Of a stretch of DNA of 64,000 bases, positions 3,188 to 60,966 are shown piece by piece. The translations under genes were made by a program, and so were the position numbers. A model generated the notes under the pieces. The model made no database searches, had not been told where the DNA came from, and worked only from the letters and a program-made list of their open reading frames with translations. Numbering within the stretch: position 1 is the first letter of the stretch; the number at the start of each line of letters is the position of its first letter. This stretch comes from Centroscyllium fabricii (taxonomy: Eukaryota): assembly GCA_051313645.2 (NCBI GenBank), contig JBNRSN020000002.1, positions 101,122,001 through 101,186,000 of the forward strand. The letters are read 5' to 3'.

Positions 3188-3894
3188 AGGGTTGTTTCTG
3201 AAAGGTTATTTTTGATGAGGCAGGTTTATGTAGGTTAGTTGTGATGAGTCAGTTATTATCAATTGTTTGTGATGGAATAGCTGGGCTAGTTCTTATGGTG
3301 GTTAGTTGTCTTAGTCAACTTTCGTCAGGGTTAGTAGTGACAGGGTCAGTTATGATGCATTAATTGTGATAGGGCCAGCTGTGACAGCTGAGTTTTGTCA
3401 GGGTTGATTGTGACAGAGTAAGTTATGATGAGGTCAGTTGTGACAGTGTAAGTCATGAAAGATTGACTGTGATGGAGTCAACAATGATGACTTTATTGTT
3501 ACAGAGTCAGTTATGACAGATGGGTTTTATCAGAGTTTGTTGTGACAATATTAGTGTTGATAGGATGATTGGAGCACGTTTAGTTGTGATGGCTGGGTTT
3601 TACTGTGGTTGTTTATGATGAATATGGCTGTGGGGCAAAATTCATTGAGGTTGCTTATGGTGGAGACAGTTGTGGTATGGTACTTATTGGGGTTGATAGT
3701 GACAGAATTGCTATGATGGATTTTGATGGGAATTGATTAAAATTGCATTGCTTGTGGGGAGGTGTTTGACAGGGACGGTTGTGAAACAGTTGGTAAGTTT
3801 AGTGGGTTCTGGAATGGTGTTTGATTGGGTTGGGATCATTTATGATTGGCTTAGTTTTGATGGGACCAATGGTAATGGGGTTGGTTCGAATCAG

Positions 3895-3980
3895 AGACAA
3901 AAACAGAATACACTGGAGACACTCAGCAGCATCTCCAGTGTTTTCTGTTTTTGTTTCAGATTTTCAGTGTCTGCAGTTGG
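3895..3980. repeat. Short fold-back remnant related to hammerhead family B; no ribozyme core left
   Basis: acaaaaacagaatacactggaga ... tctccagtgttttctgtttttgt inverted arms, similar to 60620-60850. Confidence 0.55.
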
Positions 3981-10095: not shown

Positions 10096-12440
10096 ACTGT
10101 ATTTCTTCATTCATCAGTGACCGAAAACTTGAAATCATTTTTGTTGCTCTTGTCTGCTCTGCCCTGCTTACTTTTAAAATTAAAATGGAAAGTTTTGAAG
10201 CACTTGGAAAATGTTTTTATCTCTACAGTACACTTATTTTTCAAAATGAGTTTTTAATTTGTGGAAAATTGTCTCACAGTTTGATCACAGATAGCAATGT
10301 GTAAAATTATAAGATTATAAAAATACTCTGATATCTTCAAAAGTGTAACATTTATTCTTTGTAGATATTTACATTGAGACCCCTATCTGTTAGATGCCTG
10401 AATAATTCATAAAAAAAATTTGTTTAGCCAGTGTATGGTTTCACGTTTGAAATAAGAGCTCAACTTGAGATAGGGGTTAAAAATATATCCTTTGATCAGT
10501 GAGTGAGTCTCAAGCCTCCATCGTTCCTTTTTGTGATTGTTAACAGTTCTCAGCAAGGGGAAATCCCCATCTATGTGTTCCCTCCGAGCTGAATTAAGTG
10601 TCTTAGCCAACTGTGTCATCTAGCCTTTCAGCAAAGAGCTGACCTTTAGCTTGTTGAGATGGCATGAAATCACTTAGACAGGGTACTGATCTTTAAAGGA
10701 AAAAAATCTGTATGTTACAGTCAAGGTAGTCTCATTCCAGACAGACAGTTTTTAATGGAACTAGGTTGATATCAGGACTATGAGAATGTTACAATTTTAC
10801 ATCAGGCTTAAATGTTTGAATTAATTCATTAATTAATTTGAATAGTGAGGAATTTTCACAGCCATTACTTAACAGTAATACTCTCCTTCCATCTCCCTCC
10901 CCACACACTACCCACCATGTAGTATGTGCATCTATTATCATGTTGCATTATGAAATATTATTCAACGCCATTGAATAATACCACCGTCGATATTTACTTT
11001 AATTTGAAGAATGGCATGAAGAATCATTTCAAACAATACCAAGAAAGTAAAACACAGTTGGTTAATTACAATTCACAAGAATTCAAAACCAGGAGGGATA
11101 GTTCTAACAAAGATCACCGTCTCAAAAGAATTTTATTTTGAGATTGAATAATGTCACTTAACTCTTTGAAGGTTACATTATGTTTGCAACTTTCCAGAAT
11201 AAATGCTTTTTGGTGCGTCAGGCCTGAGAGGATTCTGTGCTCCAGTTCTTTTCTCCATCTGTCTACATATTACTATGACTGTAATTGAGACAGATAATAG
11301 GCATTATGTCTCGCCTATGTCGAGGAAACTTGGGAGCTTTTGGATTAACAGAAAGTCGAGTTTAAATTTCAGAGACTGATGTTGCAAGCTGATGGCATTT
11401 CATTTTGTTAATAATGCAAATTCCAGCTAAGGCCAGTTCAGGCCAGTTGACATGGCTTTCACTGGTATCAATTAAAATTTACAGCTGGGTTAGTTCCGTC
11501 TGCCAACACTATGTACTGCTCGCGCCAGGTAACCTGTTTCAGGTTTTCTGCCGATGCTACTATTTAATCAATTATTATGAGATGGAATAGAACAACCCAG
11601 TTTGATTCACTCACTAATTTGTTTTTCCTCCCTCGAATGGATTGCCTGGGATCAGGAATTCACCCAGTAGGGTAATCCCAACTGTGCAGCTGCAGCCTGT
11701 AACTGAACACATTACAGACTGCCTACAGCTCGCTTGTTCCGAGTGTGTTACCATCCCATAATGTGCTGCAATGACAAGGCACCTTGTCTTTATTTCCATC
11801 TTTCCAATTTTCTAATTTCCTATCTTGAAAGCACAGACTCATTATGGGGTTCAATTCTATGAGTGTCAGACATCTACTGGTAAACTGGATCTAGTGAGAA
11901 TGAGGAATTTTAAGAAATTAATATTGGTAAAAATAATACTGGAAAAATTAATGGCACTAAAAGCCAACAAATCCCCAGGACCTGATGGGCTATATCCTAG
12001 GGTTTTAAAAAAGGTGGCTACAGAAATAATGGATGCTTTGGTGTTCATCTTCCAGAATTCACTAGATTCTAGAATGGTCCCCACAGATTGGAAGGTGGCA
12101 AATATAACCAGGCTATTCAAGAAAGGAGGGAGAGAGAAAACAGGGAACTATAGACCAGTTAGCCTGACATCAGCTGCAGGGAATCTATTATTAGGGATGG
12201 GGTAACATGGCACTTTGCCCAATCAAACTATGATTTTCTAAGTGCCATGTTACCCCATCCCTAATAATAGATGTCAGCATGGATTTATGTAAGGGAAATC
12301 ATGTTTGACAAATCATTTTGACATTTTTCAGGTTGTAACTAGCAGGGTAGTGTATTTGGATTTTCAGAAAGCATTTGAAAAGGTGCCACACAAGAGGTTA
12401 TTACACCAAGTTAGGGCTCAAACGATTGGGGGTAATATAT

Positions 12441-14310
12441 CCCATCGTACAGAGAACCCCCAGCTTCTGTCGCGACACTACAGACGTCTTACAGCAACTC
12501 AGCACCCACGGACCAGTTGAACCAGGAACACTCCTCGCCACAATGGACATCTCGGCACTCTGCACCAGCATCCCCCACGATGACGGCATTGCTGCGACAG
12601 CCTCAGTACTCAACACCAACAACAGCCAATCTCCAGACGCCATCCTACAACTCATCCTCTCCATCCTTGACCACAATGTCTTCACCTTCGACAACCAGTT
12701 CTTTACCCAAACACACGGAACAGCCATGGGGACCAAATTCGCACCCCAATACGCCAACATCTTCATGCATAAGTTTGAGCAAGACTTCTTCGCTGCACAG
12801 TATCTCCAACCAACGCTATACACCAGATACATCAACGACATTTTCCTCCTATGGACCCACGGCGAAGAATCACTGAAAAGACTACACGACAACATAAACA
12901 AGTCCCATCCCACCATCAAACTCACCATGGACTACTCCTCAGAATCGGTTTCATTATTGGACACACGAATCTCCATCAAAGTCGGACACCTCAGCACTTC
13001 ACTCTACCGCAAGCCCACGGACAACCTCATGATGCTCCACTTCTCCAGCTCCCACCCTAACCACGTTAAAGAAGCCATCCCCTATGGACAAGCCCTGCAA
13101 ATACACAGGATCTGCTCAGACGAGGAGGAACGCGATGGACACCTACAGACACTGAAAGATGCCCTCGTAAGAACGGGATATGATACTCGACTCGTCGATT
13201 GACAGTTCCGATGGGCCACAGCAAAAAATCGCACAGACCTCCTCAGAAGACGACCACGGGACACAACCAACAGAGTAGCCTTTGTCGTCCAGTACTTCCC
13301 CGGAGCGGAGAAACAACGCCATGTTCTTCGCAGCCTTCAACATGTCATCGATGACAATGAACATCTCGCTAAGGCCATCCCCGCACCTCCACAACTTGCC
13401 TTCAAACAGCCACCTAACCTCAAACAGACCATCGTTCGCAGCAAATTACCCAGCTTTCATGAGAACAGTAACCACGACACCACACAACCCTGCCACAGCA
13501 GCCTCTGCAAGATGTGTCAGATCATCAATACAGATACCATCATCACATGTGAGGACACCACACACCAGGTACATGGTACATACTCATGTGACTCGGCCAA
13601 CATTGTCTACCTCATAGGTTGCAGGAAAGGATGCCCCGGAGCATGGTACATCAGCAAGACCATGCAGACGCTGTGACAACGGATGAATGGACACCGCACA
13701 ACAATCACCAGGCAGGAGTGTTCCCTCCCAGTCGGGGAACACTTCAGCAGTCAAGAACATTCAGCCTCCGATCTTCGGGTAAGCATTCTCCAAGGCGGCC
13801 TTCAAGACACACGACAACGCAAAATCGTCGAGCAGAAACTGATAGCTCAGTTCCGCACTCATGAGGATGGCCTCAACCGGGATCTTGGCTGCATGTCATG
13901 CTACATGTAACCCCACCTGATGTAGAGTCATCCAGACTCCAGTCATCTTTGGCTTGTTCTCACTAAGACATTTTTTTAAATTGTTCTGTGTTGGTTTTTC
14001 ACACAGACCACAGCATGTGCAACATTTGACCCTTTGTGACTCCACCTCATTGTTCTTCGGGTGGTGTCTGCCTGACTGATCTGTTTGGACACCATTCACA
14101 CCTTTGATTGCTATAAATGTCTCTCTGCCGAGGTGTGATGAAGGGCAGTTGGAAAGATTTCCTGTAATCATCCAGCATTGTTCTCCGACTATATATGCTG
14201 TGTTTGTATGCATCTCTCTACTACACCTGATGAAGGAGCAATGCTCTGAAAGCTTGTGATTTCAAATAAAACTGTTGGACTATAACCTGGTGTTGTGTGA
14301 CTTCTGACAT
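12441..14310 (+). mobile_element. Penelope-like retroelement (probably Neptune-type), 5'-truncated: RT + Cys motif + GIY-YIG endonuclease + pLTR
   Basis: MDISALCTSIP, GTAMGTKFAPQYANIFM, YTRYINDIF, LYRKPTD; PCHSSLCKMC; NIVYLIGC...WYISKT; PVGEHF; GLNRD; a few stops; 11-bp TSD GGGTAATATAT (12430-12440, 14311-14321). Confidence 0.93.
14224..14258 (+). ncRNA. Minimal type I hammerhead ribozyme motif in the PLE pLTR (family A)
   Basis: CAC-CTGATGA-A-GGAGC(AAT)GCTCT-GAA-AGCT-T-GTG: catalytic core, stem II, palindromic stem III, 3-bp stem I. Confidence 0.8.
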
Positions 14311-14556
14311 GGGTAATATATTAGCATGGATTGAGGATTGGTTAACAGAGAGAAAACAGAGAGTAGGAATAAACGGGTCATTTTCAGGATGGCAGGGTGT
14401 TACTAGTGGTGTGCTTGGGCCTCAGCTATTTGCAATCAATGACTTGGATGAGGGGACCGAGTATTATGTATCCACGTTTGCTGATCATACAAAGCTAGGT
14501 GGGAAAGTAAGTTGTGAGGAGGATGCAAAGATGCTGCAAAAGGATATAGACAGATT

Positions 14557-20330: not shown

Positions 20331-21164
20331 GGCCGAAAAATTCGTCAGCGCACAAAATGGGCGCTAAATTTGACGCTATGCAAAAATTTACCGCCGGCGC
20401 TAAATTAGCGCCGATGCACCCGATATTGGCGCTAGTGGTGGCCTTGATGATTTTGGCGCAAATTCCCGCCTTGCGCGAGAGTCAGGCGGCTAATATCCCG
20501 GCGCTAATGGCTGTTCCCGGGCGCAGCGCTCTCTGACTAACTGCTTGCTTCCCCTTCGCCTCTGCAGCCGATGAGGCATTAAAGGGGGAGCAGCAGCTGT
20601 TCTCCGTGCTGTCTGAGCAGTTGCGTCTCAGAGAGAGCGGAGAGAGGGGCCGGCTCTGTGATCAGTGGCGTCTTGCAGAGAGGGGGGAGGGCAGCTCTCT
20701 GATCATTTGCGTCTTGGTGGGTCACCGCGACCCCCTCCCGCGGCCACTCTCTGCAAGACGCCAGTGATCACAGAGCCGGCCCGCTCTCTGCAAGACGCCA
20801 TCAATTGGCCGCTGAGGCCGACTCCCACCATCAGCTGGCCGCGCTCGGGCTGAAGAGGGAGGGTGGCCCTTTTACCAGCGCTGCAGCGGCCACTCAAAGC
20901 CGCTGCAGCGCTTGCAAAAGCTGTCGCTAATAGCGCGGGTGGCGCTGCGAAGGCGCTAAGGCCAATATCGGGCGCAGGCCATTGCATATGCATTGCCATG
21001 ACGATTGTTGATCGTTAGGCGGTGCAGCGCTAGCGTTTAGCACCGGCGCTAACCACCATGCCAATTTAGCGCCCGCCGCTAATTGGGGCACTACGTTGGC
21101 GCTGCCCTATTAGTGCCGATTTTCGGCGCTAATGGGCTGGTGCTAAGGGGCCAATTTCATGCCC
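20331..21164. mobile_element. GC/CpG-rich Harbinger-type MITE inserted in a CR1 tail
   Basis: Ends GGCCGAAAAATT / AATTTCATGCCC; ATA on both sides; many TAGCGC/GCGCTA subterminal motifs. Confidence 0.75.
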
Positions 21165-21441: not shown

Positions 21442-21579
21442 AACTATTAGATTCAGCCTGTCCCTACATTATCCTGTTATTCTGTGCTACGGTGCTGGCA
21501 ACAGCTTGATTCCTGATGGGAATAGTGGCAACTGGTTAGCAGGGAAAGAAGCAGTAGCAGCTCCATTCTATCACTCAGT

Positions 21580-21763
21580 GGGGTTAATCTTAACTCTTGG
21601 TGATAGTGTAAAACAGGCGCTATCGGATTGTCGACCATTATACACCCCAGCCTCTTTTCCCTTCCATTGAAGTCAACAGAAAGGAAAATTGAACGAGGTG
21701 TATAATGGGCGGCCAATCGATGTCATCTGTTTTACATTATCACCAAGAGTTAAAAGTGGCCCC
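21580..21763. mobile_element. Fold-back MITE
   Basis: Long imperfect inverted arms (ttaactcttggtgatagtgtaaaacag / ctgttttacattatcaccaagagttaa); GGGG...CCCC ends; AGT on both sides. Confidence 0.8.
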
Positions 21764-22018
21764 AGTGACACATCTTTTTATTCACCGCTCTGGGATCTAT
21801 CTTCCTGCATGCATCAACTGTAGAAAGATGCAGATTTACCATCTGTTTTAAGTACCATTTTATTTTTAAAAGCCTCTACTTATTAATTTGTACTCCATGT
21901 TTTTTCCTTCCTTTTGTCACTGCTTTTTTCAACCCTGCCGTCTTGTGCTCAGAACACCAGTGCTGAGGTATGTGGCCATTGCAATGAGGTTCCTGAAGTG
22001 AATGTTGCTAAATTCTAT

Positions 22019-22850: not shown

Positions 22851-24022
22851 GATGGCTTGGAGAGATTTGCAATTGGGCTAAAGTGTGTGAGGCGTTGGCT
22901 GCATACACAAGGTGGTGGACATTTCCCTCCTCAACACCACTCTCTTTTTGGGCCATTTTTTCTAGTGCAAAAGGTAGAAACTTCCAAGAGAGTCTGTTAG
23001 GAGTTGAGGTTATCCCAAAATTCATAAATCTAGCGAAAGGGCTCTATTAACCTAGAGCATTTATAGTTTGAATTACAACCTCATCATTTCCAGTTTTTAT
23101 TTCCTTGTTTCTATGGGAAAATAACTCACCGCCACCCAGCAACTGCCCATAGTGATATGACTGAAATACAGAGCTTGTTATTTGAGGAATTGTGGGGGCA
23201 TCACTGTGCCGATCACTCAATGATGCAGCACATTGGAGCACTCTGTGAGTGGCCCTCGAGCAAAATGCTGCTTGGAAACTTGGCCCTTGATAAAAAGTTA
23301 GTAACATTGGTTTGAAGTCATCCTAGCTCTTATCCTTCAGCACAACAAACTTGTCTGTCAGCATAAAGAACTCCTGTCTCTCTCCTTTTCTTGAAAGGTT
23401 CATTAATATTCATTAACCACAGGGGTGTTTCTAACAAAGGAACTAATCTGCATCACCGTGTTTTACACTGAGCTGCACGCTTCTTATTCCCAACCCCCCT
23501 GACATGATTGACATGCATATATCAGCTAATTACACTTCAAAGCCCTTAAGTATCTAAGCCATTGAGCCAGGACCTAGGACTCTTTATGACACAGAATCAT
23601 ATTGCATTAAATTCCACAAGGTCATGACGACTTAACCCTTTTGTCTCCAGCTTCACTGTCTGTACGTATTAACAGCTATAATCTAACTCCCAGAGCCCAA
23701 GTACCATAACTTATGATCCAGATATATGGGATGGTGCATGTTGTTGGCTCTTCAATATATAAGGGCAAGTCTTATGAGCCTTTACTCCTGGCAGGGAGCT
23801 TTACCCACCAGGAATGCATATCAAGAAATCACTTTCTCCATCGTTTTCTGTTCACTAACGGACAAACATTTGTAGGGAGCATGTCTATGATTTCCAAACA
23901 TACACCCCTGGCAGATGGATTGATGACAAGGTGCAGCATACCTGAGATTTTCCAATGTACACTCCTGCTGGGCAAGGCTTCCTGCCGGGAGCACACGTTT
24001 GTCTCTGTATTACTACAAAGTA

Positions 24023-24177
24023 TGATGTGGAGGTGCCGGTGTTGGACTGGGGTGGACAATTGCAAGAAGTCACACAACACCAGATTATAGTCCAACAGTT
24101 TTATTTTAAATCACAAGCTTGTGATTTAAAATAAAACTGTTGGACTATAATCTGGTGTTGTGTGACTTCTTGCAATT
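24023..24177 (-). mobile_element. PLE pLTR-derived fold-back mini-element (family A) containing a perfect 120-bp palindrome
   Basis: Palindrome 24058-24177 centred on AAGCTT; arms match PLE 14250-14305; direct repeat ATTACTACAAAGTA at 24009-24022 and 24175-24188. Confidence 0.88.
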
Positions 24178-24604
24178 ACTACAAAGTACTGAGACACATA
24201 TTTGTCCCAATACTCAACTCCACTGAATTCCCAGTCTCTGCCATGCAACTGCAGGAAAGTACTCAGCAGGAGCCAGGTACTGCCTTCTTCTTCTTCTTCT
24301 CTTCTCATACAGAGAGGAAAGGACAATCGAGAATGCTCCCTGGCCTCCTGGCGGCTATCTCAAACAAGCATCGTCAGAGTCCTAGGAGTAGATTATGATC
24401 CTTCCCTCTCATCCACAAGTCAAATTGTATTAATCATATTGCATTAAATTCCACAAGGAGAAAAAAAAATGGGGTGGGGAAGAAATTTAAGAATATAAAT
24501 TCTTATATAATAAAAACAAACATTGTAAATATCCATCCTGCTTCTAAAATGTCCTTCCATTTTTAAATTGGATATTGTTTTTTTCAGTGCATTGCATATA
24601 AGTG

Positions 24605-24775
24605 CAGAGATAGAAACAGAGTTAACATTTCAGTTCATTGGCCTTACATCAGAATTCAGGTTATCAACCTGAAATATTAACTCTGTTTCTCTCTCCACAG
24701 ATGCTGCCTGAGTACTTTCCAGGATTTTCTGTTTTTATTGCAGATTTCCAGCATCCACAATATTTTGCTTTGGTT
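24605..24775. mobile_element. Degenerate fold-back mini-element, hammerhead family B
   Basis: agaaacagagttaacatttcag ... ctgaaatattaactctgtttct inverted arms; decayed core. Confidence 0.7.
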
Positions 24776-24919
24776 TTGGTGGAGATAATTGGTTGGCTTC
24801 GAAATTCACCTGGTGTGGTTTTTTAAAATTGAAATAACCTTAAATGAAGAAAGCACTCTCTCTCTCTCTGACTCCAGTTTCTCTCTCCCCTCTCAGTGCA
24901 ATATACTTTTAAAAGTAGC

Positions 24920-26592
24920 ATCTCGGGAATAGTGATCATAGTATTGTAAGGTTTAGATTAGTTATGGGGAAGGACAAGGAGTAATCTAGAATAAAAATAT
25001 TTAACTGGAGGAGGGCTAATTTCAGTGAATTGAGGAGGTATCTTGCCCGGGTTAATTGGAGTCAGAGACTGGCAGGCAGAAATGTAATGGAGGAATTGAT
25101 GGCTTTTAAAGAGGAGATGGTTTGGGTACAGTCTAGCTACATTCCCACAAGGGGGAATGGGAGGGCAAACAAAGCACGAAGTCCCTGGATGACGGAGGAG
25201 TTAGAGAGTAAGCTGAAGCAGACAAAGAGCATCTGACTGATGTCAGCTTGATAATACAAGCAAGAAGTACAGAGGAGAAGTGAAAAAGGAAATAAGTGGG
25301 CTAAGAGACAGTACGAGAATAGTTTGCCGGCTAACATAAAAGGGAATCCAAAGGTCTTCAATAGGCATATTAACAGTAAAAGGGTTGTCAGAGGAGTGGT
25401 AGGGCCGATTAGGAACCAAAATGGAGATCTATTGATGGAGGCAGAAGGCATGGCTGAGGTACTAAATGAGTACTTTGCATCAGTGTTTACCAAGAAAGAG
25501 GACTTTGTCAAAGCTATGATAAACAAGGAGATTGCCAGGATACTGGATGAGATAAAAATAGATAAAAAGTAGGTATTAGAAAGGCTGGCAGGACTTAAAG
25601 TGGATAAGTCATGGATGGGATGCATCCTAGGTTGCTGAGGGAAGTAAGGGTTGAAATTGCAAAGGTTCTGGCCACAATCTTCCATTTCTCCTTAGCTACG
25701 GGGGTGGTGCCAAAGGACTGGAGGATTGCAAATGTTACATCCTTGTTCAAAAAAGGGGAGAAGGATAAACCTGGCAATTACAGGCAAGTCAGTTTAACAC
25801 CAGTGGCGGGGAAGCTTTTAGAAACAATAATCTGGGATAAAATTAGCAGCCACTTGGACAAGCATAGACTAATAAAAGAGAGCCAGCACAGATTTGTTAA
25901 GGGCAAATCGTGTTTGACTAACTTGCTTGAGTTTTTTGATGAGGTAACAGAGAGGGTGGATGAGGGCAGTACAGTTAATGTTGTGTGTATGAACTTTCAA
26001 AAGGAATTTGATAAAATACCACATATTAGGAATGTTAGCAAAATTGAAGCCCATGGGATAAAAGGAAAAGTCACAGCATGGATACAAAATTGACGAAGAG
26101 TTTGAAAATAGAGAGTTGTGGTGAACGGCTGTTTTTCAGATTAGAGGGAGGTATACTGTGGCATTCCCCAAGGTTCAGTACTAGGACCACTGCTGTTTTT
26201 GATATACATTAATGACTTGGACACAATTTTTAAATTTGCAGATGACACAGAACTTGGAAGTGTCGTTAACAGTGAGGAAGATAATAATAGACTTCAAGAG
26301 GACATAGACAGGTGGAACAAGTAGACACATGGCAGATGAAATTCAATGTAGAAAAGGGTGAGATGATACATTTTGGTAGGAAGAATGAGGAGAGAAAATA
26401 CATGATACATGCAAGAAGAGACAAATCTGGGGGTGTTTGTGCACAAATCTTTGACGGTGGCAGGACAGGTTAACAAAGCAGTTAATAAAGCTCCTAGAAT
26501 CCTTGGCTACATAAAGAGAGGCACAGAGTATAAAAGACAGGAAGTTATGCTAAACCTTTATAACACACTAGTTCGGCCCCTATTGGAGTGTT
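24920..26592 (+). mobile_element. CR1 LINE ORF2 fragment (second subfamily), degenerate
   Basis: LNEYFASVFT, DGMHPRLLREV, NYRQVSLT, KSCLTNLLEFF, KFADD. Confidence 0.92.
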
Positions 26593-27410
26593 GGAGTAAA
26601 TTTTCATTGAGCCGTGAGGCGGGCTTTTCAGCGGGGAGGGCCGCAAAGTTGCTAAACCGGGTTTCCCGACGACCACCACTCCCCCCCCCCCCCCCACCCC
26701 CCCGGCCGAATCCCTGCCGCTTTGTGATTTCCCGCCACTGTGTCTACCCGCCCCGAATCTTTCCCACCGGCGGCCAACGGGAATGGTCATTAGGCTCATT
26801 AGGGACCCTTAATTGGCATGTATAATGCTATTTTAAGGGCCCCCTGCAATTTTGAAGTGTTTCCCGCCCATAACCCGCCAGCCTGAAACCCCACCGGTGA
26901 AACCTAGTGGGGACACATTTGGTTTGCTGACTTTCACCATCAAGGCATTGAAGCAGCTGTAGCAGAATGCCTTCCTGGCCTCCAGCATGCTGGAGGTCTA
27001 ACTGTCTCCCTAAGGTGAACAAGATCAGTGGGGAAACACCTTTCAAATGCTTACCTTCCAGCTGCTTTCTAGTGATTGACAGATAGGCCTTCCCTAGCTG
27101 TCAAGAGGTTACCAGTGAAACAAACTACTTAGAGTTGTCAATCATCCACTTGTGGTTAGCTTATGTTTACAGGGCTTTATGATGTCACAATCCACTGAAT
27201 CAACAGAAACAACCAAAACAAACTCCTTAGAGTTGTCAATCATGGGCTCTGGTGGTTATACAGCGGGAACCCCGCCCGCTTTCTGTCTTAAACAATCAAT
27301 TGACCAGGGATTCCCACACGCAGGCAATTAATTGGCCAATTGAGCCAAAATTGCATGGGGCTGCCAGGCCCTTTAACATTCAGGTCATGCTGAGGCCATC
27401 ACGTGAAATC
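26593..27410. mobile_element. Harbinger-type MITE (same family as 43335-43863, opposite orientation); right end uncertain
   Basis: Start ggagtaaattttcattgagccgtgaggcggg closely matches the reverse complement of 43833-43863. Confidence 0.6.
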
Positions 27411-27704
27411 TTTAACCAATGGCATTAACAGACACAAAAAAACTATTCAGTGGATAAATGTAGTCATTCATTATGAAATATGCAATTTTGTGATGTCTTT
27501 ATGTTATGATCCTCATTTTGGATGTTTGAAACTACAGTTACTGAAGAAAAATTGGTTGAGGAGAAAAACACTTCAGAAAGCATTTTGAACAATTTGTGTG
27601 GAACTGCTGGCTAGATTGTGCAATCACAGGGTGCTGCACTCTCACAATAAAATAGTACGAAGTCACACAACACCAGGTTATAGTCCAACAGTTTTATTTT
27701 AAAT

Positions 27705-27739
27705 CACAAGCTTTCGGAGCGCTGCTCCTTCGTCAGGTG
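27705..27739 (-). ncRNA. Minimal hammerhead ribozyme motif (family A)
   Basis: Minus strand CAC-CTGACGA-A-GGAGC(AGC)GCTCC-GAA-AGCT-T-GTG, perfect 5-bp stem II. Confidence 0.82.
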
Positions 27740-27748
27740 TATGGCATA

Positions 27749-27783
27749 CACCTGATGAAGGAGCTTCGCTCTGAAAGCTTGTG
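27749..27783 (+). ncRNA. Minimal hammerhead ribozyme motif (family A)
   Basis: CAC-CTGATGA-A-GGAGC(TTC)GCTCT-GAA-AGCT-T-GTG. Confidence 0.8.
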
Positions 27784-28087
27784 ATTTCTAATAAAACTGT
27801 TGGACTATAACCTGGTGTTGTGTGACTTCTTACAATTGTCCACCCCAGTCCAACACCGGCACCTCCACATCACAATAAAATAGCAACTACAGTGTGTCAA
27901 ACAGCGGGATACCTTTAACATTGAAAATATCTATCATACTGACACCTACAGTAGTAATAGGCATTTATATTCAGTTTTCAATGAAATGCATGACCCATAT
28001 TGCAAATTTAATATAATAGTTCTATTCAATTTCCCCCATATTTTCCCCTTCCCACAGCTACCTCTGTCAGACTGTCTGTTAGGCAGT

Positions 28088-31168: not shown

Positions 31169-32557
31169 GGGGGGGATTTTTCCGGAAGTGCGGGAACCTG
31201 GCGGAGATTGGTCAGGGCGGGTTCCTGTCCCGCCTGGCCAAAGACCTGGGAACCCCACGCAATTTTCAGTTAATTGAGTTGTTAAATCCCTGCCTGCGGC
31301 AGCCGGTGGTAATTGACTCAATCGAGTCGGGGCTCCAGCGGGGCTCGAGCAGTTTGATTGACAGTTCCAGCACTGGTTGTTGACAGTTCCCATGGAAACA
31401 CTCCACTGTGATATCACAGTCGAGTGGAACCAATGGGAAAGGTCAAGTGCTGGTGACTGACAGGTGGGCGGGCGGGCTCAGAATCCTTTTCAGCTCGGCA
31501 CTGGCTGTGAGGAAATGTGCAAAGCTGAGATTTCTCAGTTTTTGCCCACAGCTGGTGCACCCACCACGGAGTTACTTACTCCTCTAAGGTGCTGGAGGCA
31601 TGCCAAGCATTTTGCAGCATGTCCTCACGACCTTGAAGGAGAAAGTAACGACCAGCGTTGTGCTCCCGCTGGGTTTTACCCAGCGGGGTTTAAGGTGACG
31701 GAGAATGGGTGGGAAATGGCTAAAAATGGCTAAGGGCCCTTAAAATGGCATTATAGATGCCAATTAAGGGCCCTTAACAACCTAAACAACCATCCCCGCC
31801 GGCCGCCGGCGGGAAGGATTCGGGGCGGGGAAAGAGGCCGTCCAAAATTGCAAAACCGGCGGGTTGGGGCGGGACACCAACATTTCCTATTTTCACCTCC
31901 CAGCCACCCAAAACCCTGCCTCAAGGCCCTGTCACACCTAGACGTTTTAGCCAGCGTATGCAAATTTGGCTAAAACGCTGAACTTTTGACTTTTTTTCAG
32001 TTTTGGGTGTAAATAGCGTATTCATAACGTATGCATAACGTATTAGTAACGTACACAGAACGTATCGATAACTTACAGATAACATATACCAACGAATGCT
32101 TAGCGTGTTGTCGGCGTTCACAACTTATGCCCAACGATAGTCTAACGTATGCATAGCGCGCGGCAGCGTATCGCCGACGTTTTAGATAAATGTTGATACG
32201 TTGGCATACGAAATCGTCAAGGTGTGACAGGGCATGACAGGGGCACAGGTAAGGTGTGTTCAACGATCGCCTAACGTGCCTACAACGTATGGCCAGCGTA
32301 TGCGGAACGTGTGAGTCATACGCTGGATAAGTCGAGATTTTTTGTGCATGCTCAAAAATTCTCGACTTACTCGAAGTACAACGACGTATGCAACGTATGC
32401 GCAACGTATGCCCAGCGTATGCCCAGCGTTCTCGTAACGTATGCATAACGTACCCATAACGTATCCGACGTAACCCAGCGTTTTAGCCAAATTTGCATAC
32501 GCTGGCTAAAACGTCTAGGTGTGACAGGGCCTTCACGGGGACATGAAAATCCCCCCC
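31169..32557. mobile_element. Harbinger-type MITE hosting a younger element
   Basis: GGGGGGGATTTT / AAAATCCCCCCC; ATT on both sides. Confidence 0.8.
31924..32532. mobile_element. Young 609-bp non-autonomous DNA transposon (PIF/Harbinger-like)
   Basis: Perfect 57-bp TIRs (31924-31980, 32476-32532) starting AGGCCCTGTCACAC; TCA on both sides; dense (A/G)CGTAT motifs. Confidence 0.92.
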
Positions 32558-33889: not shown

Positions 33890-36800
33890 ACACAGTGGTA
33901 CAGAGACACACCGAGACAGTGGCACACTGACACTCAAGATACTGGCACACTGTGACACGGGCACACTGCAACACGGACACACTGCGACACAGACACACTA
34001 CAACAAGGACACACTGCGACACGGGCACACTGTGACACAGGCACACTGCGACACGGACACACTGCGACACGGACACACTACAACAAGGACACACTGCAAC
34101 ACGGGCACACTACAACAAGGACATACTGCGACACGGATACACTGCAACAAGGACACACTGCAACACGGACACACTACAACAAGGACACACTGCGACAAGG
34201 ACACATTGCGATACGGGCACACTGCGACAAGGACACACTGCGACAAGGACACACTGCGATACGGGCACACTGCGACAAGGACACACTACAACAAGGACAC
34301 ACTGCAACACGGACGCACTGCGACACGGACACACTGCGACAAGGACACACTGCAACAAGGACACACTGTGACACGGGCACACTACAACAAGGACACACTG
34401 CGACAAGGACACACTGCGACACGGACACACTACAACAAGGACACACTGCGACACGGACACACTGCGACACGGACACACTGCGACAAGGACACACTGCGAC
34501 ATGGACACACTGCAACAAGGACACACTGCGACACGGACACACTGCGACACGGACACACTGCAACAAGGACACACTGCGACACGGACACACTGTGACATGG
34601 ACACACTGCGACAAGGACACACTGCGACACGGACACACTGCGACAAGGACACACTGCGACACGGACACACTGCAACATGGACACACTGCGACAAGGACAC
34701 ACTGCGACACGGGCACACTGCAACAAGGACACACTGCAACAAGGACACACTGCGACACGGACACACTGCGACACGGACACACTGCAACAAGGACACACTG
34801 CAACATGGGCACACTGCAACATGGACACACTGCGACACGGACACACTGCAACAAGGACACACTGCAACATGGGCACACTGCGACACGGGCACACTGCAAC
34901 AAGGACACACTGTGACACTGACACACTGCGACACAGGCACACTGCGACACGGATACACTGCGATACGGGTGCACTGTGACATGGGCACACTGTGACACTG
35001 GCACACTATGACACTGCGAAATGTAGAAACTGCAACAAGGACACACTGCGACATGGGCACACTGCGACACACGCACACTGCAACAAGAACACACTGTGGC
35101 ACTGGCACACTGACAGGGGCACACTGCAACAAGAACATACTGCGGCACTGGCACACTGGCACGGGCACACTGCGACACGGGCACACTGCGACACACGCAC
35201 ACTGCAACAAGAACACACTGTGGCACTGGCACACTGACAGGGGCACACTGCAACAAGAACATACTGCGGCACTGGCACACTGTGGCACGGGCACACTGCG
35301 ACACGGGCACACTGCGACACTAGCACACTGTGACATGGGCACACTGCGACATGGGCACACTGTGACACTAGCACACTGCACCATGGGCACACTGCGACAT
35401 GGACACACTGCGACACAGACACATGGTGACACTGGCACACTGCGATATGGGCACACTGTGACATGGGCACACGGCGACACTGGCAAACTGTGACACCGGC
35501 ACACTGCAACAAGGACACACTGTGACACTGGCACACTGCGACACGGGCACACTGCGACAAGGACACTACGACACTGGCACACTGTGACACTAGCACACTG
35601 TGACAGTGGCACACTGCATCACTGGCACACTGCAACAAGGACACATTGCAACACAGACACACCGACATGGGCACACTGCGACATGGGCACACTGCAATAC
35701 TGGTGCACTGCAGCGCAGGCACACTGCGACACTGGCACACTGCCACACGGGCACACTGCGACACTGGCACACTGCGACACTGGAGCTCTGCGACAAGGAC
35801 ACAGCGACAAGGACACAGCGACACTTTCACACTGCAACACTGGCACATTGCAACAAGGACACACGGTGCCATGGGCACACTGCGACATGGGCACACGGTG
35901 ACATGGGCACCTGGTGACATGGGCACACTGCGACATTGGCACACTGCAACACTGGCACACTGCGACACTGGCACACTGTGACATGGGCACACTGCAACCA
36001 GGACACACTGCGACATGGGCACACTGCAATACTGGCGCACTGCAATGCAGGCACACTGCGACACTGGAACACTGCCACACGGGCACACTGCGACACTGGC
36101 GCTCTGCGACAAGGACACAGCGACACTTTCACACTGCAACACTGGCACATTGCAACAAGGACACATGGTGTCATGGGCACACTGCGACATGGGCACACTG
36201 TGACACGGGCACCTGGTGACATGGGCACACTGCGACATGGGCACACTGCAACACTGGCACACTGCAACACTGGCACACTGCGACATGGGCACACTGCAAC
36301 ACGGGCACTGCGACAAGGACACACTGCGTCATGGGTACACTGTGACAAGGGCACACTGCAACCAGGACACACTGCGATGTGGGCACACTGCGGCACTGGC
36401 ACACTGTGACTCTGGCAAACTGCGACACTGGCACACTGCGACACTGGCACATTGCAACAAGGACAGACTGCGACACGGGCACACTTTGACACTGGCACAC
36501 TGCGACACTGGCATACTGTGACACTGGCACACTGTGACATGGGCACACTGCGACACAGGCAATCTGTGACACTGGCACACTGCGGCATGGGCACACTGTG
36601 ACACGGGCACACAGCAACATGGGCACACAGTGACATGGGCTCACTGCAACACTGGCACACTGTGACATGGGCACACTGTGACATGGGCACACTGCAACAC
36701 GGGCACACTGTGACACGGGCACACTGTGACATGGGCACACTGGCACGGGCACACTGCAACAAGGACACAGTGCGACATTGGCACACTGCAACACTGGCAC

Positions 36801-39800
36801 ACTGCAAAACTGGCACACTGCAACATGGACACATTGTGACATGGGCACACTGCGACACAGGCACACAGCAACAAGGACACACTGCAACATGGGCACATTA
36901 GCGACACTGGCACACTGTGACACGGGCACACTGCAGCGCGGGCACATCACGACATGGGCACTATGTGACACTGGCACACTGCAATAAGGACACACTGTGG
37001 CACAGGCACACTGCAACACTGGCACACTGCGACTCTGGCACACTGTGAAACTGGCAAAACTGTGACACTGGCACACTGCAACACTGGCACACAGCAACAC
37101 GGATACAATGTGACATGGGCACACTGTGACACGGGCACACTGCAACACAGACAATCTGTGACATGGGCACACTGCAACACTGGCACACTGTGACATGGGC
37201 ACACTGCAACACTGGCACACTGCGACGTGGGCACACTGCGACACTGGCACACTGTGGCACTGGCACACTACATCACTGGCACACTGCAACAAGGACACAC
37301 TACAACATGCGAACACTGCGACCCGGGTACACTGCAATACTGGTGCACTATGACATGGGAACACTGTGACACTGGCACACTGCAACACAGGCACATTGCG
37401 ACATGGACACACTGCGACATGGGCACACTGCGACACTGACAAACGGTGACACAGGCACATTGCGACATGGGCACACTGCGACACTGGCACACTGCAATAC
37501 TGGTGCTCTGCGACAAGGACACAGCGACACTAGCACACTGCAACAAGGACACACGATGACATGGGCATACATGCGACATGGGTACACTGTGACTGGCACA
37601 CTGCGACATGGGGCACACTGCAATACGGGCACTGCGACACGGACACACTGCAACATGGGCACACTGCGGCACTGGCACACTGCGACACGGGCACACAGTG
37701 ACATGGGCACACTGCAACACTGGCACACTGCGACATGGGCACACTGCAACACTGGCACACTGCGACACGGGCACATGGTGACATGGGCACACTGTGACAC
37801 GGGCACACTGTGACACGGGCACACTGCAACACGGGCACTGCGACAAGGACACACTGCATCACGGGCACACTGCAACAAGGGCACACTGCGGCAAGGACAC
37901 ACTGCGACCCGGGCACACTGCGGCACTGTCACACTGCGACACTGGCAAACTGCGACACTGGCACACTGACACTGGCACATTGCAACAAGGACCACTGCGA
38001 CACGGGCACACTGTGACACTGGCACACTGCAACCCTGGCACACTGTGACACAGGCACACTGCGACACTGGCACACTGTGACTTGGGCACACTGCGACACA
38101 GGCACACTGTGACACGGGCACCCTGCGACACAGACACCCTGTGACACTGGCACACTGCAACACTGGCACACTGCAACACGGGCACACAGTGACATGGGCA
38201 CACTGGCACACTGTGACATGGGCACACTGTGACATGGGCACACCGTGACATGGGCACACTGTGACATGGGCACACTGCGACACTGGCACACTGAGACACG
38301 GCACACTGCGACACTGGCACACTGTGACATGGACACACTGCAACACTGGCACACTGTGACATGGGCACACTACAATACTGGCACACTGTGACATGGACAC
38401 ACTGCAACACTGGCACACTGCAACACAGGCACACTGCGACATGGGCACACTGCAACATGGACACATTGCAACACGGGCACACTGCGACACGGACACACTA
38501 CAACAAGGACACACTGCAACACGGGCACACTACAACAAGGACATACTGCGACACGGATACACTGCAACAAGGACACACTGCAACACGGACACACTACAAC
38601 AAGGACACACTGCGACAAGGACACACTGCGATACGGGCACACTGCGACAAGGACACACTGCGACAAGGACACACTGCGATACGGGCACACTGCGACAAGG
38701 ACACACTACAACAAGGACACACTGCAACACGGACGCACTGCGACACGGACACACTGCGACAAGGACACACTGCAACAAGGACACACTGTGACACGGGCAC
38801 ACTACAACAAGGACACACTGCGACAAGGACACACTGCGACACGGACACACTACAACAAGGACACACTGCGACACGGACACACTGCGACACGGACACACTG
38901 CGACAAGGACACACTGCGACATGGACACACTGCAACAAGGACACACTGCGACACGGACACACTGCGACACGGACACACTGCAACAAGGACACACTGCGAC
39001 ACGGACACACTGCGACATGGACACACTGCGACAAGGACACACTGCGACACGGACACACTGCGACAAGGACACACTGCGACACGGACACACTGCAACATGG
39101 ACACACTGCGACAAGGACACACTGCGACATGGGCACACTGCAACAAGGACACACTGCAACAAGGACACACTGCGACACGGACACACTGCGACACGGACAC
39201 ACTGCAACAAGGACACACTGCAACATGGGCACACTGCAACATGGACACACTGCGACACGGACACACTGCAACAAGGACACACTGCAACATGGGCACACTG
39301 CGACACGGGCACACTGCAACAAGGACACACTGTGACACTGACACACTGCGACACAGGCACACTGCGACACGGATACACTGCGATACGGGTGCACTGTGAC
39401 ATGGGCACACTGTGACACTGGCACACTATGACACTGCGAAATGTAGAAACTGCAACAAGGACACACTGCGACATGGGCACACTGCGACACACGCACACTG
39501 CAACAAGAACACACTGTGGCACTGGCACACTGACAGGGGCACACTGCAACAAGAACATACTGCGGCACTGGCACACTGGCACGGGCACACTGCGACACGG
39601 GCACACTGCGACACACGCACACTGCAACAAGAACACACTGTGACACTGGCACACTGACAGGGGCACACTGCAACAAGAACATACTGCGGCACTGGCACAC
39701 TGTGGCACGGGCACACTGCGACACGGGCACACTGCGACACTAGCACACTGTGACATGGGCACACTGCGACATGGGCACACTGTGACACTAGCACACTGCA

Positions 39801-42800
39801 CCATGGGCACACTGCGACATGGACACACTGCGACACAGACACATGGTGACACTGGCACACTGCGATATGGGCACACTGTGACATGGGCACACGGCGACAC
39901 TGGCAAACTGTGACACCGGCACACTGCAACAAGGACACACTGTGACACTGGCACACTGCGACACGGGCACACTGCGACAAGGACACTACGACACTGGCAC
40001 ACTGCATCACTGGCACACTGCAACAAGGACACATTGCAACACGGACACACCGACATGGGCACACTGCGACATGGGCACACTGCAATACTGGTGCACTGCA
40101 GCGCAGGCACACTGCGACACTGGCACACTGCCACACGGGCACACTGCGACACTGGCACACTGCGACACTGGAGCTCTGCGACAAGGACACAGCGACAAGG
40201 ACACAGCGACACTTTCACACTGCAACACTGGCACATTGCAACAAGGACACACGGTGCCATGGGCACACTGCGACATGGGCACACGGTGACATGGGCACCT
40301 GGTGACATGGGCACACTGCGACATTGGCACACTGCAACACTGGCACACTGCGACACTGGCACACTGTGACATGGGCACACTGCAACACGGGCACTGCGAC
40401 AAGGACACACTGCGTCATGGGTACACTGTGACAATGGCACACTGCAACCAGGACACACTGCGACATGGGCACACTGCAATACTGGCGCACTGCAATGCAG
40501 GCACACTGCGACACTGGAACACTGCCACACGGGCACACTGCGACACTGGCGCTCTGCGACAAGGACACAGCGACACTTTCACACTGCAACACTGGCACAT
40601 TGCAACAAGGACACATGGTGTCATGGGCACACTGCGACATGGGCACACTGTGACACGGGCACCTGGTGACATGGGCACACTGCGACATGGGCACACTGCA
40701 ACACTGGCACACTGCAACACTGGCACACTGCGACATGGGCACACTGCAACACGGGCACTGCGACAAGGACACACTGCGTCATGGGTACACTGTGACAAGG
40801 GCACACTGCAACCAGGACACACTGCGATGTGGGCACACTGCGGCACTGGCACACTGTGACTCTGGCAAACTGCGACACTGGCACACTGCGACACTGGCAC
40901 ATTGCAACAAGGACAGACTGCGACACGGGCACACTTTGACACTGGCACACTGCGACACTGGCATACTGTGACACTGGCACACTGTGACATGGGCACACTG
41001 CGACACAGGCAATCTGTGACACTGGCACACTGCGGCATGGGCACACTGTGACACGGGCACACAGCAACATGGGCACACAGTGACATGGGCTCACTGCAAC
41101 ACTGGCACACTGTGACATGGGCACACTGTGACATGGGCACACTGCAACACGGGCACACTGTGACACGGGCACACTGTGACATGGGCACACTGGCACGGGC
41201 ACACTGCAACAAGGACACAGTGCGACATTGGCACACTGCAACACTGGCACACTGCAAAACTGGCACACTGCAACATGGACGCATTGTGACATGGGCACAC
41301 TGCGACACAGGCACACAGCAACAAGGACACACTGCAACATGGGCACATTAGCGACACTGGCACACTGTGACACGGGCACACTGCAGCGCGGGCACATCAC
41401 GACATGGGCACTATGTGACACTGGCACACTGCAATAAGGACACACTGTGGCACAGGCACACTGCAACACTGGCACACTGCGACTCTGGCACACTGTGAAA
41501 CTGGCAAAACTGTGACACTGGCACACTGCAACACTGGCACACAGCAACACGGATACAATGTGACATGGGCACACTGCGACACGGGCACACTGCAGCACGG
41601 ACAATCTGTGACATGGGCACACTGCAACACTGGCACACTGCGACATGGGCACACTGCAACACTGGCACACTGCGACGTGGGCACACTGCGACACTGGCAC
41701 ACTGTGGCACTGGCACACTACATCACTGGCACACTGCAACAAGGACACACTGCAACAAGGACACACTACAACATGGGAACACTGCGACCCGGGTACACTG
41801 CAATACTGGTGCACTATGACATGGGAACACTGCGACACTGGCACACTGCAACACAGGCACATTGCGACATGGACACACTGCGACATGGGCACACTGCGAC
41901 ACTGACAAACGGTGACACAGGCACATTGCGACATGGGCACACTGCGACACTGGCACACTGCAATACTGGTGCTCTGCGACAAGGACACAGCGACACTAGC
42001 ACACTGCAACAAGGACACACGATGACATGGGCATACATGCGACATGGGTACACTGTGACTGGCACACTGCGACATGGGGCACACTGCAATACGGGCACTG
42101 CGACACGGACACACTGCAACATGGGCACACTGCGGCACTGGCACACTGCGACACGGGCACACAGTGACATGGGCACACTGCAACACTGGCACACTGCGAC
42201 ATGGGCACACTGCAACACTGGCACACTGCGACATGGGCACATGGTGACATGGGCACACTGTGACACGGGCACACTGTGACACGGGCACACTGCAACACGG
42301 GCACTGCGACAAGGACACACTGCATCACGGGCACACTGCAACAAGGGCACACTGCGGCAAGGACACACTGCGACCCGGGCACACTGCGGCACTGTCACAC
42401 TGCGACACTGGCAAACTGCGACACTGGCACACTGACACTGGCACATTGCAACAAGGACCACTGCGACACGGGCACACTGTGACACTGGCACACTGCAACC
42501 CTGGCATACTGTGACACAGGCACACTGCGACACTGGCACACTGTGACTTGGGCACACTGCGACACAGGCACACTGTGACACGGGCACCCTGCGACACAGA
42601 CACCCTGTGACACTGGCACACTGCGACACTGGCACACTGCAACACGGGCACACAGTGACATGGGCACACTGGCACACTGTGACATGGGCACACTGTGACA
42701 TGGGCACACCGTGACATGGGCACACTGTGACATGGGCACACTGCGACACTGGCACACTGAGACACGGCACACTGCGACACTGGCACACTGTGACATGGAC

Positions 42801-43330
42801 ACACTGCAACACTGGCACACTGTGACATGGGCACACTACAATACTGGCACACTGACATGGACACACTGCAACACTGGCACACTGCAACACAGGCACACTG
42901 CGACATGGGCACACTGCAACATGGACACATTGCAACACGGGCACACTGACACGGGCACACTGCAGCAAGGACACACTGCCACACGGGCACACTGCCACAC
43001 TGGCACACTGCGACATGGGCACATTGTGACATGGGCACACTGCGACACAGGCACACTGCAACAAGGACACACTGCAACATGGGCACATTAGCGGCACAGG
43101 CACACTGCGACACGGGCACACTGCGATGCGGGCACAATGCGACATGGGCACACTGCGACACTGGCACACTGCACTAAGGACACACTGCGACACAGGCACA
43201 CTGCAACACTGGCACACCGCGACACTGGCACACTGTGAAACTGGCACATTGCGATGCTGGCACACTGCAACATCGGCACACTGCGACACAGATACAGTAA
43301 TACACAGACACTGATAAGATGACACTGAGA
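33890..43330. repeat. ~9.4-kb tandem array of a 16-bp unit (ACACTG[CG/TG/CA]AC-[ACGGG/ACTGG/AAGGA/ATGGG]-C) with ~4.4-kb higher-order duplication
   Basis: Direct reading; marker GAAATGTAGAAAC at ~35018 and ~39438 (offset 4420); ORF-track twins at offsets 4420/4450/4466. Confidence 0.97.
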
Positions 43331-44729: not shown

Positions 44730-46130
44730 CCTGCCCGATTTCAGAGCCCCCGCCCTGAGTTCAGAGTCCCTGCCCTGATTTCAGAGCACCTGACCCTGCT
44801 TTCAGAGCCCTGCCCTGATTTCAGAGTCCCTGCCCTGATTTCAGAGCACCTGACCCTGATTTCAGAGCCCCGCCCTGATTTCAGAGTCCCTGCCCTGATT
44901 TCAGAGCCTCCACCCTGATTTCAGAGTCCCTGCCCTGATTTCAGTGCACCTGGCCCTGATATCAGGGCCCCTGCCCTGAGTTCAGAGCCTCTGCTCTGAT
45001 TTCAGAGCCCCTGCTCTGATTTCAGAGCCCCGTCCTGATTTCAGAGCCCCGCCCTGATTTCAGAGTCCCTGCCCTGATTTCAGAGCCCCACCCTGATTTC
45101 AGAGCCCCTGCCCTGATTTCAGAGCCTCCACCCTGATTTCAGAGTCCCTGCCCTGATTTCAGAGCACCTGGCCCTGATATCAGAGCCCCTGCCCCGAGTT
45201 CAGAGCCTCTGCTCTGATTTCAGAGCCCCTGCCCTGATTTCAGAGCCCCGCCCTGATTTCAGAGTCCCTGCCCTTATTTCAGAGCCCCGCCCTGATTTCA
45301 GAGTCCCTGCCCTGATTTCAGAGCCTCCACCCTGATTTGAGTCCCTGCCCTGATTTCAGAGCACCTGGCCCTGATATCAGAGCCCCTGCCCCGAGTTCAG
45401 AGCCTCTGCCCTGATTTCAGAGTCCCTGCCCTGATTTCAGAGCCTCCGCCCTGATTTGAGTCCCTGCCCTGATTTCAGAGCACCTGGCCCTGATATCAAA
45501 GCCCCGCCCTGATTTCAGAGTCCCTGTCCTGATTTCAGAGCCTCCACCCTGATTTCAGACTCCCTGCCCTGATTTCAGAGCCCCTGCCTCGATTTCAGAG
45601 CCCCTGATCCTGATTTCAGAGCCCCAGCCTTGATTTCAGAGCCCCGACCCTGATTTCTGAGCCCCTGCCCCGATTTCAGAGCCCCAGCCCCGATTTCAGA
45701 GCCCCTGCCCTGATTGCAGAGTCCCTGCCCTGATTTCAGAGACGCCACCTTGATTTCAGAGCCCCTGCTTTGATTTCAGAGCCCCTGCCTCAATTTCAGA
45801 GCCCCTGACCCTGATTTCAGAGCCCCTGCCTTAATTTCAGAGCCCCTGACCCTGATTTCAGAGCCCCTGCCTCGATTTCAGAGCCCCTGACCCTGATTCC
45901 AGAGCCCCTGCCTTGATTTCAGAGCCCCTGCCTTGATTTCAGAGCCTCTGCCCTGATTCCAGAGCCCCTGCCCTAATTTTAGAGCCCCAGCTCCTGATTT
46001 CAGAGCCCCAGCACTGATTTCAGAGCCCCTGCCCCTGATTTCAGAGCTCCAGCCCTGATTTCAGAGCCCCTGCCCCTGATTTCAGAGCCCCAACACTTGA
46101 TTTCAGCGCCTCTGCCACGATTTCAGAGCC
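44730..46130. repeat. Minisatellite, ~20-bp unit CCCTGCCCTGATTTCAGAGC, about 70 copies
   Basis: Direct reading; unit length varies 18-21 bp. Confidence 0.97.
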
Positions 46131-53400: not shown

Positions 53401-53443
53401 CCGTTTTCCTTCCTTCAAAACCAGCAATTATCTGTTCCGACAT

Positions 53444-53572
53444 AAGCAAAATACTGCGAATGCTGGAAATCTGAAACAAACACAGTAAATGCTGGGAATG
53501 CTCAGGTCAGGCAACATCTATGGATAGAGAAACAGAGTTAACGTTTCAGGGCGATGACCTTTCATCTGAATT
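53444..53572 (-). mobile_element. Hammerhead family B element, single arm, one core mutation
   Basis: Minus strand attCAGATGAaaggtcatcgccctGAAACGTTaact. Confidence 0.75.
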
Positions 53573-60849: not shown

Positions 60850-60872
60850 TCCTGTTTTCTTGTTGTTCGGTT

Positions 60873-60966
60873 AAGAATTACTCTGGTCGCTATATGGAGC
60901 AACATCATAACCATGTTCTTTAATGCATTTGTAATATTGCTACACATAGCAACCAGAGTAATTCTT
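60873..60966. repeat. 94-bp inverted-repeat element
   Basis: Perfect 15-bp arms AAGAATTACTCTGGT / ACCAGAGTAATTCTT, with further imperfect pairing inside. Confidence 0.75.

Follow-up and report, generated by a model that had tools for sequence, protein, structure and literature searches.

A perfect 120-bp palindrome centred on a predicted hammerhead helix III sequence in a short Penelope-like insertion

Architecture and status of the 24-kb insertion

The window, a 64,000-nucleotide stretch of Centroscyllium fabricii DNA, contains a 120-bp palindrome at positions 24058–24177. The two 60-nt halves (24058–24117 and 24118–24177) are 100% complementary and meet with a 0-nt spacer at a symmetry axis between positions 24117 and 24118, in agreement with the initial annotation, which had described a perfect 60+60 palindrome centred between AAG and CTT. 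The second-longest perfect arm in the whole window spans 14 nt, and the longest spacerless arms in shuffled windows (n = 5) span 7–12 nt, which rejects chance as the origin of the palindrome.

The palindrome belongs to a 152-bp insertion flanked by an exact 14-bp direct repeat (24009–24022 and 24175–24188). The repeat had been noted before and is a true target-site duplication, as shown by its single copy at the empty site of organism A described below. The first three nucleotides of the right copy (ATT) also match the continuation of the element. The last three nucleotides of the right half (24175–24177) belong to the target duplication, and the element-derived arms comprise 57+57 nt. By sequence comparison with the sister arms, the left arm (24058–24117, minus strand) corresponds to the pLTR from the middle of helix III to the tail boundary. 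This arm alone is extended by an AC-rich 35-nt PLE (Penelope-like element) 3′ tail (24023–24057, minus strand), which is identical to 27838–27872 at 35 of 35 positions and, having no partner sequence, is not palindromic. Positions 24023–24120 are 96% identical to 27775–27872. The right, inverted arm (24118–24174, plus strand) is tailless and ends, according to the arm comparison in the window, at the recurrent tailless 3′ end of the family. The 24-kb object is thus very probably a lineage-specific and heavily 5′-truncated insertion of a Neptune-like PLE, in which two 3′ ends, one of them tailed, are arranged head to head.

At the symmetry centre lies AAGCTT (24115–24120), the palindromic helix III sequence of the hammerhead ribozyme predicted for the family, and on either strand the predicted cut falls 3 nt away. 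Both assignments had been made in the initial annotation and are supported by hammerhead descriptor matches in three other arms of the window (27656–27743, minus strand; 27745–27872, plus strand; 14222–14309, plus strand) and by the same hammerhead layout in 11 of 76 loci with genes for related proteins. A second 6-mer palindrome in the 24-kb arm (24125–24130, −3.6 kcal/mol) is not used as the joint. Both 24-kb arms carry a variant at 24084/24151, previously proposed to be private to them, and share a second variant at 24063/24172; neither is found in any of the three other arms. The catalytic cores are indeed missing, with 0 matches of the minimal-hammerhead descriptor on either strand of 24009–24188.

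As a hairpin, the 24-kb palindrome has a predicted energy of −66.4 kcal/mol (z = −22.8), and its central 40 bp are 80% A+T. Cruciform formation is plausible from these predictions. Near-perfect palindromes longer than 40 bp number ∼180,000 in the human genome (PMC7999016). Devoid of a hammerhead core and an ORF, the insertion is most likely inert, though hairpin-prone; taken by itself, the locus is an ordinary dead insertion. No clear long ORF was found in any of the six frames of its flanks.

Public contigs of four of 21 listed runs were aligned to positions 23450–28050 (two from organism F, the best-matching organism, and one each from organisms G and A); of the other 17 runs, 15 had shares below 0.2. 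The two organism F samples share one study, and the window may derive from one of them. In both, contigs cover 23450–24043 and 24152/24154–24692 with 0 differences, including part of the tail (24023–24043) and part of the tailless arm (24152–24174), and both outer junctions of the insertion are therefore real. The palindrome centre and the variant at 24151 lie outside all listed locus-specific contigs and are known from the window alone; a contig break would be expected at a multi-copy perfect palindrome. In organism A, one contig joins 24008 directly to 24175 and thus lacks the 152 bp and one copy of the 14-bp repeat, which identifies an empty site. In organism G, a contig piece stops at 24013, and cover of equal depth restarts after about 24180; this organism probably also has an empty site, the second contig piece being absent from those listed. 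The examination of the orthologous site suggested in the initial annotation thus returned an empty site in organism A and, by inference, in organism G. The 24-kb copy is a real, lineage-specific and young insertion. The flanks differ, gaps left out, at 22 of 564 sites from organism G and at 18 of 257 sites from organism A.

The same flanks contain an exact 27-bp direct repeat (23595–23621 and 24432–24458, 837 bp apart) that is present in both organism F samples. Its interpretation as the duplication of a larger insertion was rejected, as the enclosed sequence is present in organisms A and G, which show differences within the second copy. Given this distribution, the repeat looks like a lineage-specific templated patch.

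A sister fold-back is located 3.5 kb away (27642–27883, plus strand) and consists of a 214-bp element with a 14-bp duplication. In this 27.7-kb copy, both hammerhead cores are kept, and the symmetric centre lies 5′ of stem I and lacks a perfect 6-bp palindrome. Its 88-nt arms differ at seven sites, including two doublets, whereas the 24-kb arms differ at none; tested against the age limit, the 7/88 difference is not significant (P = 0.06 by sites and 0.26 by events). At site 27788, the 24-kb arms match one arm of the 27.7-kb copy and the 14.2-kb copy matches the other, which modestly suggests, from one site, the existence of two templates. The 27.7-kb copy is missing in organisms A and G, where 27641 is joined to 27870. 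Bins 26838–27299 have little or no cover in these two organisms, and no listed contig joins across them. Contigs of all four runs span a 27.7-kb-type centre (27740–27748) with 1–3 letters missing, indicating that this junction type recurs in three species.

The window contains several other repeats. A 9.3-kb array of 8/16-bp period occupies 33941–43289, and 70 copies of a 20-bp unit occupy 44730–46130. A LINE on the minus strand (54603–58312) encodes an RT and an endonuclease; an ORF upstream of these has matches to GDSL-like lipase and OSK domains. Imperfect fold-backs at 20641–20800, 21575–21768, 31380–31446 and 60873–60966 are unrelated to the family described here and are possibly MITEs or other PLE ends. 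Moreover, a ∼90-bp fold-back in LINE-type sequence (12183–12272, 88% complementary) resembles a local template switch.

The parent family and its hammerhead

The window contains a single coding copy of the family (12441–14310, plus strand). Its decayed, 5′-truncated ORF (12441–13910) spans 489 residues with two TGA breaks and comprises an RT, a Cx4CxxC linker and a GIY-YIG-type endonuclease. The ORF is followed by the 3′ UTR and pLTR (13911–14310, plus strand), which contain a hammerhead (14223–14259; descriptor match at 14223, 313 nt past the stop) and terminate in a tailless end. A 56-nt part of the 24-kb arm is 96% identical to this hammerhead-bearing pLTR, which ties the palindrome to an autonomous-type PLE. 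The coding copy is flanked by an 11-bp duplication (12430–12440 and 14311–14321) and has neither a tail nor an inverted arm. It is nested within LINE-type sequence, which we take to be CR1-like.

The closest homologue of the 489-residue product is an uncharacterised protein of Heptranchias perlo (87% identity), followed by proteins of other sharks and then of turtles (40–42%), a similarity by which the host looks shark-like. In Pfam, the window protein matches RVT_1 just under the curated cut-off (E = 1.2e-6) and has no direct GIY-YIG match. Two turtle homologues that align with it over the full length (40–42% identity) contain both RVT_1 and GIY-YIG past the Pfam cut-offs. Residues C351, C356, C359, C394, H418 and H434 are invariant in 8/8 aligned proteins, as are the endonuclease residues R414, H418, H434 and N479, and the second cysteine of the CCHH motif is present in the window protein.

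These features place the family among the EN+ PLEs. The hallmark of this group, a single ORF that combines a PLE-type RT with a C-terminal GIY-YIG domain, is found in the coding copy and not in the 24-kb fragment. The 24-kb insertion in turn displays the EN+ PLE layout of an inverted 5′-truncated copy, a one-sided 30–40-bp tail and a target duplication. The linker (Cx2-5CxxC) and CCHH motif characteristic of the Neptune clade are present and are also found in Nematis. By the definitions in PMC8557442, the family would be classified as a Neptune- or Nematis-type PLE on the basis of its linker and vertebrate distribution rather than a tree. A MITE or DNA transposon was considered and rejected on three grounds: the 35-nt unpaired tail is found at one end, the 11–14-bp duplications are unrelated in sequence, and the same sequence follows an RT ORF. 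Metagenome contigs contained 0 stretches with the exact 27-nt pattern of the family.

A strict minimal-hammerhead descriptor matched the window at 14223 (plus strand), 27748 (plus strand) and 27740 (minus strand), compared with one match in 100 shuffled windows. The sister-arm hammerheads contain the core boxes, an extra base before stem II, a G10.1-C11.1 pair, a short stem I and palindromic positions 15.2–16.2. No Rfam family reached its gathering threshold in the window. Among the related loci, the 11 that bear a hammerhead contain 0 fold-backs of any kind and are uninformative on centres. Four related PLE loci (L051, L067, L068 and L074) have two same-strand minimal hammerheads; in three of these (L051, L068 and L074), about 4 kb separates two identical hammerheads, an arrangement like that of tandem PLE arrays. 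The window also contains a second, older hammerhead-like family with an AACGTT-type helix III (3889–3977, 24607–24788, 53440–53570, 60617–60859 and 62767–62865), whose hammerhead was identified by eye and fails the strict descriptor. In this second family, the 5′ edge of stem I is the approximate starting point of five of the eight arms, and 13-bp repeats flank the two solo copies.

Formation of the spacerless joint

The ends of the arms could be explained by two separate priming events. All three tailless ends in the window fall within a few nucleotides of one site, and both tailed ends fall at one site. The 24-kb arms end at these two recurrent 3′ ends of the family, which fits two separately primed cDNAs, one per nick with a 14-nt stagger. 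The central hexamer is suited to joining two such ends: AAGCTT forms a 6-bp duplex of −5.8 kcal/mol between two ends, whereas a single end has no predicted intramolecular fold (0 kcal/mol). Two opposed cDNAs of one sequence can anneal symmetrically only at a self-complementary site, and the AAGCTT hexamer exists because the hammerhead requires a palindromic helix III. The purified PLE protein of Poseidon nicks and extends both strands and prefers ATT, and it has two start sites for reverse transcription, one at either boundary of the tail; hammerhead cleavage is dispensable, and the protein is predicted to be a dimer (PMC11167929). ATT is likewise the start of the 24-kb duplication on the side of the tailless arm.

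Twin priming with annealing at AAGCTT is the reading preferred here for the 24-kb insertion, with a probability of about 0.5. The RT-endonuclease would nick both target strands 14 nt apart, and each nick would prime its own cDNA, the distal start site yielding the tailed arm and the proximal start site the tailless arm. The cDNAs would extend toward each other, and their self-complementary 3′ ends would join at AAGCTT and create a spacerless palindrome at birth. The joint would not require ribozyme action. Equivalently, one arm could have run off at the ribozyme cut and the other could have stopped 6 nt further upstream. The in vitro support for twin priming comes from Poseidon, whereas the family in the window is Neptune-like, a difference that counts against this reading. 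Moreover, the fixed tailless end could instead reflect endonuclease resolution of an intermediate, as outlined in PMC8557442. The initial annotation had included neither twin priming, which fits the fixed tailless end, nor the published inverted-arm layout of PLEs.

Further junctions of the family were collected from the contigs. The best-supported 27 contig joints (15 of 1,106 and 12 of 562), which are not a random draw, included 15 that were dropped (tandem, LINE or second-family joints) and 12 that represent 10 distinct inverted-to-direct junctions. Nine of the 10 are asymmetric, as expected from two independent cDNAs. The remaining one is symmetric on another self-complementary site (27795–27801), a sign that any self-complementary site can serve as a joint.

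A deletion after insertion is an unlikely alternative with a precise geometry. Through slippage or microhomology repair, a fold-back of the 27.7-kb type with two hammerheads would have dropped the inner 67 nt that separate its AAGCTT sites. Exactly 67 nt separate 27708 and 27775 in the nearby copy of the precursor type, where the two AAGCTT sequences are direct repeats around an inner hairpin, and microhomology-mediated deletions are known in PLE copies (PMC3846280). From one copy alone, a birth junction and a later loss are indistinguishable. The precursor allele is not seen, however, and the site is empty in organism A and presumably in organism G. The change from an imperfect to a perfect palindrome would also lead to a less stable state by the rules in PMC7999016. 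Finally, the two doublets that distinguish the sister arms have no counterpart in the 24-kb arms, a difference for which the source or age could account.

Somewhat less probable is self-priming by snap-back, in which a single cDNA from the tailed end would have stopped at AAGCTT, folded, copied itself to the tail boundary and been cut or joined there. Palindromes at PLE junctions have been read as self-priming in the literature (PMC3846280), the two arms of the 27.7-kb copy share one truncation point, and the 24-kb arms are identical at 57 of 57 positions, including the two variants absent from the three other arms. The initial annotation had taken the shared variant to imply that one arm was copied from the other. 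This implication is not supported, as two cDNAs from one source element would share the variant too. Arms of 57 nt would be identical through youth alone with P = 0.10–0.56 at 4%–1% divergence; identity is thus unremarkable for a young copy, and the shared variants demonstrate a common source rather than copying. Snap-back would be expected to give identical arms as well as symmetric joints, whereas 9 of the 10 junctions are asymmetric, in a set that cannot display perfect palindromes. A hairpin loop takes 4–6 unpaired bases (PMC7999016), which would leave a stem of at most 1 bp at AAGCTT, and the stop at the family's tailless end would need a separate cause. Of the integration model in the initial annotation, the fold-back insertion itself stands, but snap-back on AAGCTT is disfavoured by the absence of a predicted fold at the end (0 kcal/mol) relative to the duplex of two ends (−5.8 kcal/mol).

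Later homogenisation of the arms is improbable. Arms that once differed would have been equalised by template switching, and their perfection would then be silent on the birth of the insertion. Quasi-palindrome correction is known (PMC3820800), and the template-switch-like fold-back inside the LINE at 12183–12272 indicates that such events occur in this genome. Homogenisation is nevertheless unneeded for a young insertion, in which identity is expected, did not affect the sister copy, and leaves the position of the centre unexplained. An assembly or read artefact that skipped a spacer in the true allele is very improbable: none of the listed contigs bridges the centre, and AAGCTT, which flanks the inner hairpin in the sister type, is a plausible skip point, but both ends and the duplication are real, the assembly retained the centre of the sister copy with its 88-bp arms, and the missing bridge is uninformative if contigs from short-word graphs stop, as would be expected, at multi-copy repeats and perfect palindromes.

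Helix III as a joint and comparison with known systems

The coincidence of the centre with helix III is real for the 24-kb copy, and a biased sample of contig joints gives no more than a hint of recurrence. It is doubtful that helix III is a preferred fold-back joint of PLEs in general. In such a scheme, two element RNAs would be held together at helix III, a dimeric RT would copy them from opposite nicks, the cDNAs would stall at the crossing or the cut, and their ends would anneal. One of the five hammerhead-type fold-backs in the window is centred on helix III; the centre of the 27.7-kb copy falls immediately 5′ of stem I, and of three second-family copies, one has its junction at the stem I 5′ edge (60.7 kb), one has an asymmetric junction (24.6 kb) and one is joined downstream of the cut (3.9 kb). 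The 5′ edge of the ribozyme may thus be a commoner stop, given the arm starts of the second family and the truncation of the 27.7-kb copy at the same structural position. AAGCTT is also one of several self-complementary sites in the element; the hexamer at 14208 is equally stable (−6.0 kcal/mol), the one at 24125 is weaker, and others lie at 27795, 27810 and 27832. A hand-written RNA dimer paired through helix III has an energy of −12.3 kcal/mol, compared with −16.2 kcal/mol for two monomers, and the minimum-energy dimer pairs via stem II; the nearest-neighbour models behind these values omit tertiary contacts of the core. Among the 10 contig junctions, 6 of 20 arm starts lie between −6 and +3 relative to the cut (P = 0.009–0.055 in a binomial test, depending on the assumed range), an interval picked after seeing the data and with unknown letters between the two sides in two of the six. 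Truncation thus hints at a preference for helix III or the cut, in a collection of contig joints in which perfect AAGCTT-centred copies cannot appear.

One study reportedly deals with dimeric PLE hammerhead variants. A literature search, whose scope did not extend to most subscription journals (including older Penelope papers) or to supplements, found no report that places PLE inverted junctions on hammerhead helix III. Inverted copies are not discussed in the consulted part of a 2026 retrozyme preprint (10.64898/2026.07.22.740005), and junction sequences may be given in the supplements of PMC11167929 and PMC3846280.

This shark-type family is abundant and was recently active. Its short insertions are exactly readable at their ends, duplications and junctions, and comparison with related species allows them to be dated. 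Twin priming, snap-back and later deletion would be told apart by a genome-wide map of such junctions, which would bear on how PLEs build their inverted ends. The same map would bear on the in vivo role of the weak PLE hammerheads, namely whether the ribozyme marks the joint. If helix III were a preferred joint, fold-back junctions would serve as an in vivo map of the ribozyme dimer, and active families would leave perfect 120-bp palindromes across genomes.

The 5′ inversions of LINE-1 arise by twin priming, in which two nicks prime two cDNAs that are joined through microhomology, leaving an inversion within the target duplication. The second primer of LINE-1 anneals at an internal position of the same RNA, and a different sequence is inverted. 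In the 24-kb insertion, in contrast, both arms copy the same 3′ end, which generates a palindrome.

Among PLEs, an inverted 5′-truncated copy with a one-sided tail is a general feature (PMC8557442 and PMC8969392). Insertions with an inverted pLTR, an optional 31-bp tail, 8–10-bp duplications and palindromes at the inverted junction have been described and interpreted as self-priming (PMC3846280). The closest parallels are Pen2 and Pen3a of Adineta vaga (PMC3846280; scheme in PMC8557442), which share with the 24-kb insertion the inverted 5′-truncated copy, the junction palindrome, the one-sided 30–40-bp tail and the target duplication. The duplication spans 8–10 bp in Pen2/Pen3a and 14 bp in the 24-kb insertion. 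The palindromes of Pen2/Pen3a (18 and 38 bp) are located at the 5′ end of the pLTR and are not placed relative to the ribozyme in the relevant passages of PMC3846280, whereas both 24-kb arms are cut to 57 nt plus the tail, are symmetric over 120 bp and are centred on helix III.

Poseidon of Anolis carolinensis (PMC11167929) resembles the family in its two RT start sites bounding an AC-rich tail, its nicks on both strands and its ATT preference. Poseidon belongs to another clade, however, and inverted junctions are not addressed in the main text. Its ORF starts inside the hammerhead, whereas the pLTR in the window contains a stop 10 codons in. The sister-arm hammerheads share their features with the minimal type I hammerheads of metazoan PLEs (PMC4209133). 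All that the 24-kb insertion retains of such a hammerhead is helix III plus the stem I 3′ strand, and it therefore cannot be a ribozyme. The inverted arm, the palindromic junction, the one-sided tail and the target duplication are all published features of PLEs, and only the position of the joint on helix III is unusual.
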